Shown here one piece after another: positions 53,735 through 61,402 of a stretch of DNA of 64,000 nucleotides. The notes under the pieces were generated by a model that saw nothing but the letters and a program-made list of their open reading frames with translations, did no database searches and was not told the origin of the DNA. This DNA is from Polyangiales bacterium (lineage in GTDB: Bacteria > Myxococcota_A > Polyangia > Polyangiales > Ga0077539), in the NCBI GenBank assembly GCA_044229975.1, contig JBGARZ010000005.1:352001-416000 (forward strand). The letters are read 5' to 3'. The position numbers were made by a program, and so were the translations under genes. Numbering within the stretch: position 1 is the stretch's first letter; each line of letters begins with the position of its first letter.

Positions 53735-54601
53735 TCAGCCGAACGCGCCGACGACGACGCGCCCGATCTCCGCGTGCGCCTCTTCCCTCGCGCGAAGGCT
53801 CGCCGCTGGCGCCTCCACGTAGGCCGCCACCACGATCGGCGCCCGGCCGGGTGGCCACGCCACCGCGACGTCATTGCACGCGCCGCGCTCGCCGGTTCCG
53901 GTCTTGTCGCCGACGCGCCAGGTTGGTGGCATCCCCGCGCGCAGTCGGGCACGTCCCGTCGACGAGGCGACCATCCACTCCGCGATGCGAGCGCGCGACG
54001 CGGGCGAGAGAACCCGCGGGGAGAGCAGCAGCGTCGCCATGGTGCGCGCCATCGCCGACGGCGTGGTGGTGTCGCGCGGGTCACCCGCGAGGTTGGTGTT
54101 GAGCGTCGGCTCGTTGCGGTCGAGCCGCGTGGTGGCGTCACCCATCGCACGCAGAAACGCGGTGAGCTCGGCGGGGCCGCCGAGTCGCGCGAGCAGCAGG
54201 TTGGCGGCGGTGTTGTCGCTTCGCTCGACTGCCGCGGCACACAGCGCTTCGACGGACATCGCGCCGTCAGCGAGATGCGCTCGCGTGTCCGGCGCGTACT
54301 CCAACAGGTCGGCCGCGGTGAACGGCACCCGCGTCGCGAACATCAGCGTCCCCTCGTCGACGCGCCGCAATGCCATGCACGCGAGGACAGCCTTGAAGGT
54401 CGAGCACATCGCGAAGCGCTCGTCGCCGCGGTGAGCGATGCGACGCTCGGAGCCCGCGTCCCACGCCGCTACGCCGATGCGTCCACCAAGGCGAGTCTCG
54501 ATGGCCGCGAGGCGCGCCAAGGTGCCGTCTTTCGTCCGATGGCACGCACCGATCGTGGCGACCGCGGCCCCGACAAGCAGCCGCCGTCGGTCGATGGACA
54601 C
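53735..54601 (-). CDS. bla: Class A beta-lactamase
   Basis: FAMCSTFK (SxxK), SDN, EPTLN (E166/N170), DTTTP, DKTG; N-terminal RRRLL and IGAC. Confidence 0.95.
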   Translation of the reverse strand: MSIDRRRLLVGAAVATIGACHRTKDGTLARLAAIETRLGGRIGVAAWDAGSERRIAHRGDERFAMCSTFKAVLACMALRRVDEGTLMFATRVPFTAADLLEYAPDTRAHLADGAMSVEALCAAAVERSDNTAANLLLARLGGPAELTAFLRAMGDATTRLDRNEPTLNTNLAGDPRDTTTPSAMARTMATLLLSPRVLSPASRARIAEWMVASSTGRARLRAGMPPTWRVGDKTGTGERGACNDVAVAWPPGRAPIVVAAYVEAPAASLRAREEAHAEIGRVVVGAFG

Positions 54602-54608
54602 GACCTGC

Positions 54609-57434
54609 CTACCGCCCCGCCGCCCCGCCCGCGGGCTCGCCCGGATCGGACCCGTGCCCGTCGTCCAGCGCGAGCGCGTCGACCCGTCGCACCAGCAGCG
54701 CGTCGAGCCCCCGCGGCGCCAACGCGTCCGGTCGCCCCGAGACCCACCCGGTGAGCGCGTCGCGCACCAGCGGCGGCGCCGCGTCGTAGCGACGCACCAC
54801 CTCCTCTGGCGCCTCGACCACCCTCCCCATCGCCGCCAGCAGTTCGCCCGCTGCCGCCGCGTTGTCCGTCGGCGATCGGTCGTTCTGCAACGTCACCCGC
54901 GACCCGTCAGGACCGCGGTACTCCTGCACCGCGCGCACCTTGCTGCCGAAGCGCCCCTGCACCCGCACGCTCCGGTCGCCCTCGCGCACCGCCGTCACCG
55001 CGCGGCCCGACTCCCACGGCGCGACCCGCACCGCCGCCACCACCCGCCGCCCCGGCGCCTCCGCCGTGCCCGCGAGCCGCAGCCGATGCATGCCCGCCTC
55101 GCCGCGCAATAGCCCGAACGCGTACGCCCCTCTCACACCCAGCAGCCACGACTCCTCGTCGTCGCGCGGGTCTCGCCACCACGTCGCGGTGTACCCGCGG
55201 TGCTTCGCCCACTCGACGTACAGCGCCGCCAGCCGGTCGCGCATCTCCGGTCCGCTCGCGCCCACGACGCGGCACTCCACCAGCGCGTCGGCCCGACCGA
55301 GGTCGCCCATCACCACCAGCTCGCGCCGCGCGTCACGCAGCGCCTCCTCCAGCGCCCGCACCTCCTGCGCCGCGCCCTCCAGCGCCCGCCGCGAGGCCCC
55401 CTTCTCCAGCGCATCCCGCGCGCCCGCCACGCGCTCCTCCAGCGCCTCGACCCGATCGATGAGCTCCGACTCGCGCTCCAGGGCCTGCTCGTTGGCCGCC
55501 GCCCGCGCCGCGTCGCGCCAGAACCCCGGAGCCTCGCGCTCGCCCAGCAGGGCGTTCTGCCGATCGACGGCGGCCGTGAGGTGCACCGTCTCGCGCAGGC
55601 CATCGAAGCTCGCCTCGGCCTGTTGGAGCATCACCCGCAGCACCTCGCGGTCGATGACCCGCGGGTCCGTTCGCCGCGATGGAACCTCGCTCGCCCGGTA
55701 CGTCCGCGACGTCTCGGTCTCGACGACGCGCACCCGGATGGCGCCGTCGCGCGGCGTGATGCGGAGGATCGACCCCGGCGCCACGGCCTCTTCCATCAGG
55801 GTCATGGCGAGCGGCAACACCAGCCGCTTCTGGATCTCCCGCTTGAGCGCCCGCGCCCCATAGCGGGCGTCGACCCCCTGCCGGATGACGAGGTCGAGCG
55901 CGGCGTCGTCGACGTCGACGGTGAGCCCCGGCGCCACGATGCCTTCGCGTTGGAGCACCCGCGCGAGCTCGAAGCGCGCGACGGTGCGCAGCTCGACCAG
56001 CGAGAGCGCGTGGAAGATGGTGACGTGCTGAAAGCGGTTGAGAAACTCGGGGCGAAACGACGCTTCGAGCGCCGCACGGATCTTCCCTTCGCGGTCATCG
56101 CCCGCGCGCTCGCCGAAGCCGACGGCGCGCGAGGTCTCCTGGGCGCCGACGTTGGAGGTGGCGATGACGATGGTGTTGCGGAAGTCCACCGCGTCGCCGT
56201 CGGGCGTGCTCATGCGCCCTTCATCGAGCAGCGGCAGGATGAGGTCCCAGAGGTTGGGGTGGGCCTTCTCCAGCTCGTCGAGCAGCACCACCTGGAAGGG
56301 CTGCGCGCGCACCGGATCGAGCAGCCGCGCGGGCGCATCGCGACGCCGCGGAGAGCCGAGCAGCAGCTCGAACGCGTGGTAGTCCTTGAACTCCGACAGG
56401 TCGAAGCGGAGCAGGCGGTCGGCGCTGCCGAAGACGAAGGTGGCGAGCAGCCGCGCGAGCTCGGTCTTGCCGACGCCGGTGGGGCCGACGAAGAGGAAGG
56501 TCCCGATGGGACGCCCGGTGTCGTGGAGGCCCGACTTGTAGAGGGCGATGGCCTCGACCATGGCGTCGATGGCCGCGCGCTGGCCCACGAGGCGCTCCTG
56601 AAACCACGCGCGCACCGAGCCCGCGGTCATCGTCACGGCGCGCGACACGATGAACGACGGCAGACCCGTCCGCCGCGCAAACGCCGTCTCCACGGCGGCG
56701 GGCGTGAGCTCTTCGTCGGCGAGGTCGGGCTGCTCGATGATCCATTGCAGGAGCCCGAGCGCGGGGCCCGGCTGGAGCTGCGCCCGCAGGAAACGCGACG
56801 TGAGCTGCACCATGGCGCGACGCACGCTCTCGTCGACGGCGCGGCCCGCTCCCTCGGCGACACGCTGGAGCACGGCGTCGACCTGCGCGGCGTCGAGCGG
56901 CGCCACGTCGAAGCGCTGGAGGAGGCGCGTGAAGCCGGGGATGCGGTCCATGGTGCGGAGGCGCTCGACGTTGAGCTCGACGACGACGTTGAGCTCGCCC
57001 GCTTCGAGCATGGGGCGCAGCGCGTCGAGCACGTTGTCCGTGGAGGTGTCCGAGGCGCCCGCGGTGTTGAGGTTCCAGGCGTCGGTGAAGAAGAGGATCT
57101 CGTTGCGCTCACGCGACTGCTTCACCCACGCGCGCAGCTTGGACTGCCAGTCGCCGAGGTAGTGGGTGCCGCTGAGGAGGTCCATGGTGGACACCCGCAC
57201 GAGGCCGCCTTCGCCGCGTTCGAGGCGGGCGCTGTGCACGCCCTGGAGCACGGCGGTCTTGCCCACGCCCGTCGGCCCGACCAGCATCACCGAGCGCCCC
57301 GCGGTGAGCTGCTCGTCGACGCGCGCGATCAGGTCGTCGCGGTACGGCACCCCGAGGCTCTGCCCCCCGAGCGCGAAGGGAGCGAGGGTGCGCCGCTCCT
57401 GGAGATACAGCCCGTAGTAATCCTTCTCGGCCAC
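54609..57434 (-). CDS. ClpA/C-type double AAA+ ATPase fused to a GGQ-less RF2-like domain
   Basis: Two GPTGVGKT motifs; D2 has LLDELEKAH, RPEFLNR, GAR and VGF; the C-terminal ~330 aa are collinear with RF2. GTG 57434 is supported by TGG-TATGGT 6 nt upstream. Confidence 0.88.
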   Translation of the reverse strand: MAEKDYYGLYLQERRTLAPFALGGQSLGVPYRDDLIARVDEQLTAGRSVMLVGPTGVGKTAVLQGVHSARLERGEGGLVRVSTMDLLSGTHYLGDWQSKLRAWVKQSRERNEILFFTDAWNLNTAGASDTSTDNVLDALRPMLEAGELNVVVELNVERLRTMDRIPGFTRLLQRFDVAPLDAAQVDAVLQRVAEGAGRAVDESVRRAMVQLTSRFLRAQLQPGPALGLLQWIIEQPDLADEELTPAAVETAFARRTGLPSFIVSRAVTMTAGSVRAWFQERLVGQRAAIDAMVEAIALYKSGLHDTGRPIGTFLFVGPTGVGKTELARLLATFVFGSADRLLRFDLSEFKDYHAFELLLGSPRRRDAPARLLDPVRAQPFQVVLLDELEKAHPNLWDLILPLLDEGRMSTPDGDAVDFRNTIVIATSNVGAQETSRAVGFGERAGDDREGKIRAALEASFRPEFLNRFQHVTIFHALSLVELRTVARFELARVLQREGIVAPGLTVDVDDAALDLVIRQGVDARYGARALKREIQKRLVLPLAMTLMEEAVAPGSILRITPRDGAIRVRVVETETSRTYRASEVPSRRTDPRVIDREVLRVMLQQAEASFDGLRETVHLTAAVDRQNALLGEREAPGFWRDAARAAANEQALERESELIDRVEALEERVAGARDALEKGASRRALEGAAQEVRALEEALRDARRELVVMGDLGRADALVECRVVGASGPEMRDRLAALYVEWAKHRGYTATWWRDPRDDEESWLLGVRGAYAFGLLRGEAGMHRLRLAGTAEAPGRRVVAAVRVAPWESGRAVTAVREGDRSVRVQGRFGSKVRAVQEYRGPDGSRVTLQNDRSPTDNAAAAGELLAAMGRVVEAPEEVVRRYDAAPPLVRDALTGWVSGRPDALAPRGLDALLVRRVDALALDDGHGSDPGEPAGGAAGR

Positions 57435-57497: not shown

Positions 57498-58706
57498 ATG
57501 GCGCGCCGGCTCGACTTCTGGTTCGACTACACCTGCCCCTACGCCTACCTCGCGAGCACCCAGGTGGAGGCCCTCGCGCGGCGCACGGGTGACGTCCTCC
57601 GCTGGCGCCCGATGCTGCTGGGCGGGGTGTTCAAGGCCAACAGCACGCCGCAGAAGCTCTTCGCGACGCTTTCGCCGCAGAAGGCCGCCCACAACGCCCA
57701 GGACCTCCAGCGCTGGGCTCGTCTGTACGACGTCCCGTTGACGATGCCCGCGGGTCACCCGCTGCGGTCGGTGGAGGCGCTGCGCGCGACGCTGGCCACC
57801 GGGTGCGACCCCCGGGTCATCCACGGTTTCTACCGGGCGTACTGGGTCGAGGGCCGGGAGATCTCACGGCCCGAGACCATGCGCGACGTGCTCGCGGCCG
57901 CGGGCCACGACGCTGACGCGGTGCTGCCGACGCTCGCGGGCGATGCGCTGCGCGACGCGCTGCGAACGGAGACCGAGCGGGCCATCGCGCTGGGCATCTT
58001 CGGCGCCCCGGCGTACGTGCTCGACGACGCGGTGATGTACTGGGGCGGCGACCGCGCGCACTTCGTCGAGGGGCTCCGACCGACTGATCTCATCCCGACT
58101 CCATCAAAGGACAAGCTCATGGCACACACGCTGGAAATCTATTGGGACTTCTCATCGCCCTTCGCGTACCTCGGCGCGACGCAGGCGAAGGCCCTGGCCG
58201 AGCGCACCGGGGCGACGCTCATCTGGCGCCCGATGCTGCTGGGCGGGCTCTTCAAGGCCATCGGGCAGGAGATGGTCCCGATGAACACCTGGAGCGACGC
58301 CAAGCGCCGCTACTACTTCGATGACATGAATCGGTGGGCGGAGTTCTGGGGTGTGCCCTTCAACTTTCCTGCGACCTTCCCGGTCAATAGCATCAAGGCG
58401 CTTCGCACCTACCTCGCGCTCCCGGCCGAGCGGCAGGACGCCTTCCGCGACGGCGTGTTTCGCGCGTACTGGGCAGAAGGGCGTGACATCAACGACGACA
58501 AGGTGCTGGCGGAGTTCATCGGCGACGACGCGGCGGCGGTGATGGCGCGCACGCAGGACCCGGCCGTGAAGCAGGCGCTGGTCGACGCCACCAAGAGGGC
58601 CGAGGCGGAGGGCGTGTTCGGCGCGCCGACCTGGGTCGTCGACGGCACGGATCTCTACTGGGGACAGGACCGTCTGCCGCTGGTCGAGCGCGCGCTCGCG
58701 AAGTGA
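57498..58706 (+). CDS. Tandem 2-hydroxychromene-2-carboxylate isomerase / kappa-GST (DsbA-like) domains
   Basis: Two domains, DYTCPYAY...WRPMLLGG...GIFGAP...WGGDR and DFSSPFAY...WRPMLLGG...GVFGAP...WGQDR. Confidence 0.88.
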   Translation: MARRLDFWFDYTCPYAYLASTQVEALARRTGDVLRWRPMLLGGVFKANSTPQKLFATLSPQKAAHNAQDLQRWARLYDVPLTMPAGHPLRSVEALRATLATGCDPRVIHGFYRAYWVEGREISRPETMRDVLAAAGHDADAVLPTLAGDALRDALRTETERAIALGIFGAPAYVLDDAVMYWGGDRAHFVEGLRPTDLIPTPSKDKLMAHTLEIYWDFSSPFAYLGATQAKALAERTGATLIWRPMLLGGLFKAIGQEMVPMNTWSDAKRRYYFDDMNRWAEFWGVPFNFPATFPVNSIKALRTYLALPAERQDAFRDGVFRAYWAEGRDINDDKVLAEFIGDDAAAVMARTQDPAVKQALVDATKRAEAEGVFGAPTWVVDGTDLYWGQDRLPLVERALAK

Positions 58707-58852: not shown

Positions 58853-61402
58853 GTGAACACGCGCAACCGCACCCTCCTCGCCCTGAGTCTCACCGCCGCC
58901 CTCGGCGCCCTCCCCCGCGCCGCCCACGCCGACGAGCGCACCGAAGCCCGTCGCCACTTCCGGGCGGGACTCGACCTCGTCACGCAGCGGCAGTACGTGC
59001 GCGCCATCGAGGAGTTCCAGGCGGCGTACGCCATCCTCCCCAACGTCAACGTGCTCTTCAACATCGCCCGCGCGTACAGCGACGTGGGCGACGTCGACCG
59101 CGCCCTCGACTACTACCAGCGCTACCTGCTCGCGGACGTTCCTGATCGCGCCGAAGTCGAGCAGACCATCCGCGACCTCGAACAACGCCGCCGCGCCGCC
59201 ACCGCCCCGCCCGCTCCGACGCCCGCCACGCCCGCGGTCAACCCGACGCCCGTCAACCCGACCGCGACGCCCGTCGCGCCCGTCGGCCCGACCGGGACGC
59301 TCTCCCCCGAACAGGTCGCCGCGCTCCGCTCCGCCGCCGACACGCTGCTCCAGCTCGCCGGCAACGCACCCGCGACCATCGCCGCGACGCCTGCCACGCC
59401 CGCATCGCCGACGACTCCCACGACACCGCCGACCACCGGTCCCGCGCGTGGCGCCGACGACACCTACGAGGAGCGCGTGGTCACCGCCACGCTCACGGCG
59501 CAGAGCCCGCTCGATTCGCCCAACGCCACGTCCGTCATCACGGCGCAGGACATCCGCCTGTCGGGCCTCTCCAACGTCGCCGAGATGCTGCGCCGCGCGG
59601 TGGGCGTCGACGTGATGTCCCTCGACAACAGCGACCAGCAGGTGGGCATCCGCGGCTTCAACCGCCGCCTCTCCAACCGCGTGCTCGTCCTCATCGACGG
59701 CCGCTCGGTCTACCTCGACTTCATCGGCGTCACGCTCTGGTCGATGCTCCCGGTCAACCCGGAGGAGATCGAGCGCATCGAGGTCATCCGCGGTCCGGGC
59801 TCGGCCCTCTACGGCGCCGACGCCTACTCCGGCGTCATCAACATCATCACCCGAACCCCCGGCGAAGGACGCAACTCCGTCACCGTCGGCGCGGGCAACG
59901 GCGGCGTCCTCCGCACCACCATCACCAACTCGGGACGGGCGGGCAACGTCGGCTACCGCACCGGCGTCGGCTACGAGCAGGGATACACCTTCGGCCGCCT
60001 CGTCCCCCCGACCGACCTCTCGTATCGGATCGGCGCCAACGACACCAACCGCTCGCTCCAGAACCTCCACGCCGACATCGACCTGCGCTCGCAGCTCTCG
60101 CGCTCGCTCTCCATCCAAGGCGGTCTCGCGGCTACCACCGGGACCATCTGGTTCAACGCCATCGGGCCGCTGCGGCGCTTCTGGACGGACATCACCTTCG
60201 TCCAGCCGTACCTCCAGCTCAACGCCGGCGGCTTCACCGCGCGCGCCTTCATGAACCACGTCCAGGGCGAGTCCGGCGAGGTCCTCCAGCGCGTCGGGAC
60301 GCCCCCCATCAACACCCAGTTCACCCAGGACATCATCGACGTGGAAGCCCGCTACAACCGGGGTTTTCGCCTCGGGCCCGTCGGCTTCGACCTCACCCTC
60401 GGCGGGTCCTACCGGGCGAAGCACATCTCGTGGTCGTTCCTCGACGCCGACCACCTGCTGCACCACTTCGCGGGCTTCGTGCAGGCGCAGGCCCGCTTCG
60501 CGCCGCAGTTCTCCGCCACCGCCTCGCTGCGCGTCGACCGCCACCCGGTGCTCGACTCGCCGGTGCTCTCGCCCCGCCTCGCGCTCATCTACAAGCCCAC
60601 CGCCCGGCGCGCGTTGCGACTCACCGGCGCGACGTCGTTTCGCACGCCGACGATGCTCGAGCTCTACCTCAACCTCGCCAACCCATCACCGTTGCCCGGT
60701 GTGTCGGTGCAGGCCCAGGGCGGTGAGGTCTTCAACAACGGCGCGCAGCGACTCTCCGCCGAGAGCGCCGTCTCCGTCGACATCGGCTGGCAGGACCAGA
60801 CCTCCGACCGCTTCCAGTACGAGCTCGGCGCCTTCTTCATGCGCGGCGTCGACCTCATCGAGCTCACCAACGTGCTCTTCAACCCGCTCCCCGGATCGCC
60901 CAACCCCGGCGGCCTCGTCGACGCCGGGCGCTTCCGCTTCGCCAACGACCCCTTCGCGACCTCCATGTACGGAGTGGAAGCCGCCTTCCGCGTCGCCCCC
61001 GTCGAGGGCCTCGACCTCTTCGCCAACTACACCTTCGCGTACACCCAGCAGCAGACCGGCGCGGGTCTCCGCCTCGATGACCAGCGCACGCCGCAGCACA
61101 AGCTCAACGTCGGGGCCCAGGTGCGCACCGCCTTCGGTCTGGACGTCGAGGTCACCGGCAACCTCGTCTCGTCCCAGATATGGCGAGAGCAGGACTTCGA
61201 CGCCGCCCGCGGCGTGGTGCTCAACACCTATCCATTGGACACCTACTTCCTCCTCAATGGTCGGGTCGGCTACCGCGCCCTCCGCGACCGCTTGGAGTTT
61301 GGCGTCGTCGGCACCAACCTCACCGACAACCGCGCGCGGCAGCACCCCTTCGGCGCCCCCATCGGCGCCCGCGTCATGGCGACCGTCGCCTTCCGCTATT
61401 GA
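58853..61402 (+). CDS. TonB-dependent receptor with N-terminal TPR domain
   Basis: Signal peptide, TPR helices, P/T linker, plug VLVLIDGR...IERIEVIRGPGSALYG..A..GVINIIT, barrel ending FRY. Confidence 0.92.
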   Translation: MNTRNRTLLALSLTAALGALPRAAHADERTEARRHFRAGLDLVTQRQYVRAIEEFQAAYAILPNVNVLFNIARAYSDVGDVDRALDYYQRYLLADVPDRAEVEQTIRDLEQRRRAATAPPAPTPATPAVNPTPVNPTATPVAPVGPTGTLSPEQVAALRSAADTLLQLAGNAPATIAATPATPASPTTPTTPPTTGPARGADDTYEERVVTATLTAQSPLDSPNATSVITAQDIRLSGLSNVAEMLRRAVGVDVMSLDNSDQQVGIRGFNRRLSNRVLVLIDGRSVYLDFIGVTLWSMLPVNPEEIERIEVIRGPGSALYGADAYSGVINIITRTPGEGRNSVTVGAGNGGVLRTTITNSGRAGNVGYRTGVGYEQGYTFGRLVPPTDLSYRIGANDTNRSLQNLHADIDLRSQLSRSLSIQGGLAATTGTIWFNAIGPLRRFWTDITFVQPYLQLNAGGFTARAFMNHVQGESGEVLQRVGTPPINTQFTQDIIDVEARYNRGFRLGPVGFDLTLGGSYRAKHISWSFLDADHLLHHFAGFVQAQARFAPQFSATASLRVDRHPVLDSPVLSPRLALIYKPTARRALRLTGATSFRTPTMLELYLNLANPSPLPGVSVQAQGGEVFNNGAQRLSAESAVSVDIGWQDQTSDRFQYELGAFFMRGVDLIELTNVLFNPLPGSPNPGGLVDAGRFRFANDPFATSMYGVEAAFRVAPVEGLDLFANYTFAYTQQQTGAGLRLDDQRTPQHKLNVGAQVRTAFGLDVEVTGNLVSSQIWREQDFDAARGVVLNTYPLDTYFLLNGRVGYRALRDRLEFGVVGTNLTDNRARQHPFGAPIGARVMATVAFRY

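Follow-up and report, generated by a model that had tools for sequence, protein, structure and literature searches.

A Clp-type ATPase fused to a release factor-like tail

The stretch of DNA analyzed here, hereafter the window, comprises 64,000 nucleotides (nt) from a Polyangiales bacterium (contig JBGARZ010000005.1, positions 352,001 to 416,000) and carries on its minus strand a gene for a 941-amino-acid (aa) protein, P0001 (54609..57434; GC content at third codon positions, GC3, 0.94), in which a Clp-type ATPase with two AAA+ domains (D1 and D2) is followed by a C-terminal tail resembling the release factor RF2. The open reading frame runs from a GTG start at 57434 to a TAG stop at 54611-54609, and the segment described in an earlier, sequence-only reading of the window corresponds to its ATPase part. 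Pfam recognizes AAA (residues 49-176), AAA_2 (308-470), ClpB_D2-small (481-558), and PCRF (631-803). An AlphaFold model of the whole protein reaches a predicted local distance difference test (pLDDT) value of 91.7 and a predicted template modeling score (pTM) of 0.62; in a Foldseek search, it is best matched by ClpC chains taken from ClpC-ClpP complexes. All features of this gene given below lie on the minus strand.

The protein was aligned with the best 120 of 7607 matches (121 rows), most of them 900-970 aa long, the named close homologs being records from Myxococcales, Deltaproteobacteria, and Alphaproteobacteria; removal of two partial proteins (671 and 683 aa) gave the 119-row tallies used here. 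Since these homologs were picked by whole-protein similarity, the docking loop was checked in two further sets: 54 metagenome loci picked up by D1 patterns, of which 37 covered the gene well enough for alignment, and 146 additional proteins retrieved with a profile of the tail, of which the 37 of at least 880 aa were tallied as distant proteins. For the D2 pore loop, 47 representative homologs with less than 60% identity were used. The sites of sensor-1, sensor-2, and the arginine fingers were placed by alignment to solved structures.

The sequence-only reading had found neither a Clp N-terminal repeat domain nor a long M-domain, and both absences hold. Pfam reports no N-domain, and Walker A of D1 begins at residue 53 in this copy and at residues 40-59 in 117 of the 119 full-length homologs, so no N-domain lies hidden upstream. 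An upstream start adding one was considered and rejected, given this position of Walker A, a GC3 of 0.68 in the 390-nt in-frame upstream stretch versus 0.94 in the gene, and the DSBA gene on the opposite strand there. The linker between D1 and D2 measures 36 aa, compared with 41 in the ClpA of the same genome and 160-163 in the two ClpB-type proteins encoded there; in three ClpC-type proteins, it measures 97-102.

Database names of homologs (ClpA, ClpC, AAA family ATPase) and best fold matches to ClpC and ClpB might suggest that the protein is a ClpA/ClpC paralog, either ordinary or in decay, that carries an RF2 fragment as a passenger. We find this scarcely credible: the NCBIfam ClpA and ClpB models score the protein at 257-290 bits against cut-offs of 993-1232 (TIGR02639, 257 vs 993), with the prfB models likewise far under their cut-offs, both the fusion and the motif losses persist in homologs as distant as 42% identity and in multiple phyla, and canonical ClpA and ClpB are encoded separately in the genome. 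A clp/prfB frameshift or an assembly chimera was also rejected, the fusion being found in more than 100 homologs and RF1 and RF2 being intact in the genome.

The two ATPase domains

D1 (residues 31-262; 56649..57344; Pfam AAA; structural match to ClpB NBD1, Z 17.2) combines kept and lost motifs, and the features that the sequence-only reading picked out there are borne out. Walker A (57255..57278) keeps its Lys in 118 of the 119 proteins, and the pore-1 loop (57147..57170), aligned with ClpB KYRG, has an aromatic residue (Tyr, Trp, or Phe) at position 92 in all 119. Walker B (57075..57095) reads LFFTDAW and superposes on ClpB LFIDELH in the alignment to solved structures; its Asp is present in 119/119, while Glu at the next position occurs in none, and DE is likewise found in 0/37 distant proteins. 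Beyond what had been noticed before, the alignments establish further changes in D1: neither arginine finger remains, the sensor-1 Thr is gone, and a new residue, Glu153, is present. The arginine-finger site (56910..56939), aligned with ClpB ALERRF, has the consensus FxxLF; the sensor-1 Thr is replaced across the family; the sensor-2 Arg is kept in 103/119 homologs and is Gln in this copy. Glu153 (56976..56978) stands beside the lost sensor-1 Thr, where ClpB has Ala. Its equivalent is invariant (119/119 homologs), is present in 35/37 distant proteins, and serves as a signature of the wider clade, being found in 70 of 81 rows that lack GYVG versus none of 30 canonical rows. From these residues, D1 is predicted to be non-hydrolyzing or non-canonical.

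Glu153 could be read differently, as a relocated catalytic base, in which case both rings would hydrolyze ATP and D1 would be the gripping motor, an arrangement compatible with the explanation that we favor below. The residue is invariant, lies where the sensor-1 strand ends, and accompanies loss of the Walker B Glu; D1 also retains the Lys of Walker A and the Asp of Walker B. Even so, we rate this as quite improbable: both D1 arginine fingers are lost, and some clade members retain the Glu despite a damaged D1 Walker A, which fits a structural role.

D2 (residues 275-572; 55719..56612; Pfam AAA_2 and ClpB_D2-small) has intact catalytic motifs, as first read: Walker A, the Walker B DE, sensor-1, the arginine finger, and sensor-2 are each present in 120-121 of the 121 aligned proteins, and DE is found in 34/37 distant proteins. 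Three homologs (P0192, P0195, and P0229) have a D2 that is also degenerate while keeping the RF-like tail, and are possibly fully inactive paralogs. The replacement of the GYVG pore loop by GSPRRRDAP (56331..56357) is likewise confirmed by alignment to solved structures, where the latter aligns to GAPPGYVGYEEG and is 3 residues shorter. The loop is Pro-rich, only a Gly, a Pro, a Pro-Ala, and a Leu are conserved in it, and an aromatic residue occurs in just 1 of the 47 representatives; loss of the aromatic grip in D2 is thus, by alignment, a conserved feature of the family.

The sequence-only reading had also proposed that this basic pore loop contacts RNA, and this proposal did not survive. 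This copy and its genus do have RRR or RRK in the loop, but the motif is lineage-specific: Arg occupies positions 363, 364, and 365 in 37, 29, and 6 of the 121 aligned proteins, and the net charge over the 47 representatives ranges from -2 to +2 with a mean of +0.02, the +2 of this copy being the maximum. An RNA-threading or RNA-contacting pore is refuted as a family trait and seems very remote even for this copy; the conserved basic patch of the protein lies instead in a hairpin of the tail.

These losses are features of the family, as the alignments attest, and neither chance nor sequencing error. With D2 lacking an aromatic loop and D1 lacking catalytic residues, the ring that hydrolyzes could not grip and the ring that grips would not be catalytic. 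In ClpA, D2 is the principal motor, and the Tyr residues of its GYVG loops touch the substrate (PMC9663308). A parallel among other Clp-related AAA+ proteins is found in the Torsins, which have neither aromatic pore loops nor an arginine finger of their own and for which translocation of substrates is considered unlikely (PMC5425593); TorsinA matches D2 with Z 18.2. Torsins, however, are single-ring eukaryotic proteins of the endoplasmic reticulum that are activated by cofactors, whereas the D2 described here keeps its arginine finger and D1 keeps its aromatic loop.

The ClpP-docking loop

At the position of the [LIV]G[FL] loop of ClpP-binding ATPases, the protein has VGF (residues 438-440; 56115..56123), aligned with ClpA IGL; in the ClpB/ClpA chimera 5ofo, the counterpart of AVGF is the ERKSIGL loop taken from ClpA, in agreement with the first assignment. 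Lack of conservation of VGF among homologs had been named beforehand as an outcome that would speak against docking. Gly-Phe is instead present in 119/119 homologs, preceded in 118 by Val, Leu, Phe, Met, or Ile, in 37/37 metagenome copies (six as AGF; one row read off the alignment by eye), and in 32 of the 37 distant proteins, which were found by the tail profile alone. The flanks of the pair vary. Across the wider clade, the docking motif in strict or loose form occurs in 71 of 75 rows. The genome's ClpB-type proteins have no docking loop, and its ClpA has one. In the model, pLDDT is low at residues 440-442, as in a free loop, and the linker between D2 and the tail is flexible too.

A complex prediction of D2 with three ClpP subunits scored 0.58 versus 0.24 for the best of three controls, with runs agreeing on at least 84% of contacts and a partner pLDDT of at least 74. 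The mark that we use for such predictions is reached by 116 of 157 solved pairs and 2 of 215 mismatched pairs; at 0.60 or under, it was met by only 18 solved pairs and by both mismatches, so that the support is weak. Since comparable complexes are already solved, the score may also reflect what the predictor had learned from them. The suggestion that the protein recruits ClpP is therefore strengthened by the conservation and position of the loop and weakly by the complex prediction, and we regard the protein as probably a ClpP partner.

The pseudo-RF2 tail

The tail (residues 596-927; 54654..55649; Pfam PCRF) contains all four release-factor domains. Residues 590-861 align to E. coli RF2 with E 4e-13, and residues 611-930 of the model match RF1 (1zbt) with Z 20.3 and a root-mean-square deviation of 3.8 over 285 residues. 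Like RF2 (PrfB), it has the four domains in order and the conserved core residues; unlike RF2, it lacks SPF and GGQ and is fused behind an ATPase. The site of the SPF anticodon loop, located by alignment to RF2 (55014..55088), has lost the motif and is shortened: there is no SPF at the aligned site, the letters SPF occur anywhere in the tail, unfiltered for position, in 7/119, and the span from His783 to Trp807 is 19 aa in 79/119 and 25 aa in 17/119, compared with 27 (counted by hand) in the genome's RF2. In place of the GGQ loop, domain 3 has a basic beta-hairpin (54915..54989; strands 816-826 and 832-840) with Arg834 in 117/119 and a mean net charge of +3.4; GGQ is absent from this tail, and the letters occur anywhere in only 2 of 119 homolog tails. 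The two loops are each about 8 residues shorter in most homologs. Release-factor residues away from the lost loops are kept (Gln850 in 107/119, Asn858 in 104/119, and Arg881 in 119/119). Among the tail matches that are release-factor-sized proteins with GGQ, SPF occurs in 19 of the 21 nearest, which indicates RF2 as the source of the tail. The tail is matched by 76 clusters (50% identity, E 1e-30), many of them fragments, and is less conserved (0.48-0.64) than D2 (0.70-0.79).

ClpA N-domains and adaptors are located at the D1 entrance. The pseudo-RF2 tail is attached to the C-terminus of D2, away from that entrance, and thus cannot replace an N-domain or adaptor in position. The idea that the RF2-like domain takes the place of the usual substrate or adaptor module is accordingly retained in part: the fold is real and a targeting role is plausible, but the module is at the wrong end to be a replacement. 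The E. coli RF2 chain in the ribosome structure 5czp carries a 15-residue N-terminal extension, so the RF2 N-terminus tolerates an attachment.

A precedent for such a tail exists in plant chloroplasts, where PrfB3, an RF2 paralog that was repurposed after losing SPF and GGQ, binds the 3' untranslated region of petB (PMC5897788). PrfB3 was the second feature-search match to the tail (0.89), which we treat as a lead only; it is a stand-alone RNA-stabilizing protein with no ATPase, and the two are likened by features, not by phylogeny. Together with the conserved, basic hairpin of domain 3, this precedent would fit a ClpP-independent ATPase that remodels RNA or ribosomes, its tail binding RNA as PrfB3 does and its Gly-Phe loop making some other contact. 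We consider this improbable, as Gly-Phe stands at the exact ClpP-docking position, a site where ClpB-type proteins have lost the pair, and the complex prediction weakly favors ClpP.

Genomic context and the wider clade

The host genome encodes canonical ClpA, ClpB, and ClpV, two ClpPs, and normal RF1 and RF2, so the Clp-RF2 protein is an extra system; ClpP is present in 40 of 41 genomes searched. Two partial likenesses occur at other loci: a Clp ATPase with a degenerate D1 that nonetheless has GYVG and a VGF loop (G000:C27:78781-81168) and a short PCRF match in a frame without GGQ (G000:C4:10788-11570).

Directly downstream, beginning 7 bp past the stop of the Clp gene, lies a class A beta-lactamase gene (53735-54601, minus strand; 316 bits, cut-off 200). 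A check of 12 other loci, among them some short ones, found no beta-lactamase next to the orthologs, and the insertion is therefore probably recent. On the other side, two tandem DSBA-like genes (57498-58706, plus strand) are divergent from the Clp gene and adjoin it only in genus-level relatives, and a TonB-dependent receptor with N-terminal TPR repeats follows (58853-61402, plus strand). Apart from paralogs and close kin, no conserved gene neighbor was found in 51 wider-clade loci or in 57 loci of the D1 scan, the window included.

Among 111 aligned ATPase cores, 70 have all four traits of a common signature (loss of GYVG, gain of the new Glu, and absence of D1 DE and of RR), another 28 are canonical, and the remaining 13 are mixed. 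The clade carries labels from at least Myxococcota, Planctomycetota, Verrucomicrobiota, Acidobacteriota, Chloroflexota, Bacteroidota, Gemmatimonadota, Actinomycetota, and Pseudomonadota, a range that is a lower bound, as it comes from the best 79 loci of a species-level genome scan. In a quick, midpoint-rooted tree of D2 (110 rows, one short row omitted), 30 canonical rows and six other rows without GYVG are split from the remaining 74 with a support of 99 in the Shimodaira-Hasegawa-like approximate likelihood ratio test (SH-aLRT); the 13 rows of the single-gene family group together, also with support 99. The six rows (L055, L064, L084, L085, L092, and L093), five of them labeled Patescibacteria, are nested in canonical Clps and apparently lost GYVG independently.

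Numerous members of the clade are encoded in two- or three-gene operons and have added N-terminal domains; L022, L029, L037, and L027 have HEAT repeats or a UPF0150-like domain there instead of a Clp N-domain. One such sister trio (G000:C20:427935-437045; L001, L002) lies 18 kb from the Clp-RF2 gene and encodes proteins of 1124, 1107, and about 756 aa, the first two with RF-like tails and the third with VGF and no tail. Three groups of operon-type tails match the RF-containing group with 95-97% profile probability, and tails decay strongly in the sister clades. Of 40 relatives, 8 have the single-gene type, 11 have trio subunit 2, and 4 have both; an obligate partnership with the trio operon was considered and is unsupported, with both types co-occurring in only 4/40. 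At genus level, orthologs are found in 7 of 8 genomes. A 1892-aa protein of Myxococcus virescens (P0136) clusters with trio subunits 2 and 3 and appears to be a natural fusion of the two, which hints at a heteromeric ring.

Such patchiness among relatives (8/40), the lower conservation of the tail than of D2 and its strong decay in sister clades, the variable N-terminal modules of the clade (HEAT repeats, UPF0150-like, or none), and the separation of grip in D1 from hydrolysis in D2 would all suit a protein that docks on ClpP as a switch and not as a translocase. Its tail would then be a decoy or sensor for RF2-binding proteins such as toxins, phage proteins, or rescue factors, whose binding would let the D2 cycle open or block ClpP in a stress or conflict response. 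We rate this as unlikely while giving it more weight than the RNA-remodeling alternative. Very strong conservation of the D1 pore loop suggests that a polypeptide is held, orthologs are retained across most of the genus, and no recurring defense-like neighbors were found in the same 51 and 57 loci, where a PADLOC search was not made.

Myxococcus links the trio to published expression data. The three proteins in M. vastator, with possible lengths of 1149, 1127, and 836 aa, equal MXAN_4823, 4824, and 4825 in length (PMC11423568), and the first falls in a 90% cluster with ABF91057.1 (MXAN_4823), which belongs to the Clp-RF2 clade. MXAN_4823-4825 are annotated to the ClpA/B family and share the clade and the D1 and D2 signatures of the Clp-RF2 protein, and the MXAN_4823 ortholog has an RF-like tail; they differ in being three paralogs with extra N-terminal domains, one of them tailless, and in having far more diverged tails. 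The MXAN_4823-ortholog tail matches RF-like tails with 92-94% probability; its model (pLDDT 55) gives no Foldseek match at E 0.001, while ranks 1-14 are all release factors (best E 0.007). After 8 h of chloramphenicol, the three genes show log2 fold changes of 3.57, 2.67, and 2.61, and in a second condition 1.47, 2.17, and 1.92 (PMC6617876).

A candidate ribosome-directed ClpP partner

By fold and docking loop, the Clp-RF2 protein is a class 1 Clp/Hsp100 ATPase, having two tandem Clp-type AAA+ domains and ClpB_D2-small. With ClpA and ClpC, it shares the tandem D1-D2 fold, a linker of ClpA length without an M-domain, intact D2 catalysis motifs, an aromatic D1 pore-1 loop, and an [LIV]G[FL] loop at the ClpP-docking site. 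Unlike them, it lacks the N-domain, the D1 Walker B Glu, the D1 arginine fingers, the sensor-1 Thr, and the D2 GYVG, has Glu153 and a 350-aa tail of RF2 fold, and has a D2 that the quick tree separates from the canonical Clp branch (SH-aLRT 99). Lacking an N-domain, a catalytic D1, and GYVG, and scoring below the model cut-offs, it is neither ClpA nor ClpC; it differs from ClpB in having no long coiled-coil M-domain and in having a ClpP loop. Our open-access search, outside which most subscription papers fall, found no description of a Clp fused to a GGQ-less release factor, and in a survey of release factors (PMC6514570) the main text has no mention of "Clp" and section 2.4 has no such fusion, though its supplements may bear on novelty. 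These features suggest that this is likely an undescribed protease partner, and one that may be aimed at ribosomes.

Bacteria tag stalled nascent chains, by transfer-messenger RNA (tmRNA) or with poly-alanine tails, and separate proteases then find the tag. The explanation that we favor, tentatively and from sequence features, makes the Clp-RF2 protein a partner of ClpP: its disarmed RF2 arm would take it to stalled ribosomes, from which it would hand unfolded nascent chains on to ClpP. A hexamer would dock on ClpP through its VGF loops; D1 would bind nucleotide without normal hydrolysis and hold the polypeptide by its conserved Tyr loop, while D2 would supply the ATP cycle and open ClpP without gripping. 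Such a split motor would be better suited to polypeptides in an unfolded state, for example stalled nascent chains, than to forceful unfolding. The arm might bind the A-site side of stalled or non-stop ribosomes, bringing ClpP to arrested translation while neither reading a codon nor releasing the peptide, a proposal to which we give somewhat less than even weight. For the single-gene type, the ring is likely a homohexamer, to judge from its occurrence independently of the trio operon.

In its most complete form, the explanation would describe a ribosome quality-control protease, that is, a ClpP partner whose tRNA-shaped, disarmed RF2 probes the A-site with no need for a tmRNA tag or adaptor and whose motor is split between rings, D1 possibly having a relocated catalytic Glu, with single-gene homohexamers and three-gene heterohexamers as its two forms; that so much holds together is doubtful.

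Several observations weigh against the favored explanation. Without the RF2 tips for the decoding center and the peptidyl-transferase center, both of which are lost, the tail lacks the main known ribosome contacts. As Torsins without aromatic loops are deemed unlikely translocases, and as the D2 GYVG loops of ClpA belong to its principal motor, the Clp-RF2 motor may not thread substrates. Gly-Phe is missing in five of the 37 distant proteins, D2 is degenerate in three of the 37, and no conserved neighbor in the 51 and 57 loci ties the family to translation or to ClpP. The chloramphenicol data give weak support, as they concern the sister trio, a single-gene ortholog not being close in M. vastator (best E 9.5e-88), and the MXAN_4824-ortholog tail has no match to RF-like tails (probability under 1%). 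MXAN_4832, annotated as ClpC, is up as well (1.19; PMC6617876), so a general stress response could explain the induction.

If the explanation is true, a ClpP partner with its own release factor-shaped probe would couple recognition of the stall directly to proteolysis. The division of hydrolysis and pore loop between two rings, conserved across phyla, offers a test of a general rule for AAA+ proteins, and MXAN_4823-4825 of M. xanthus DK1622, responsive to a ribosome-stalling antibiotic, would be a tractable model for this question.

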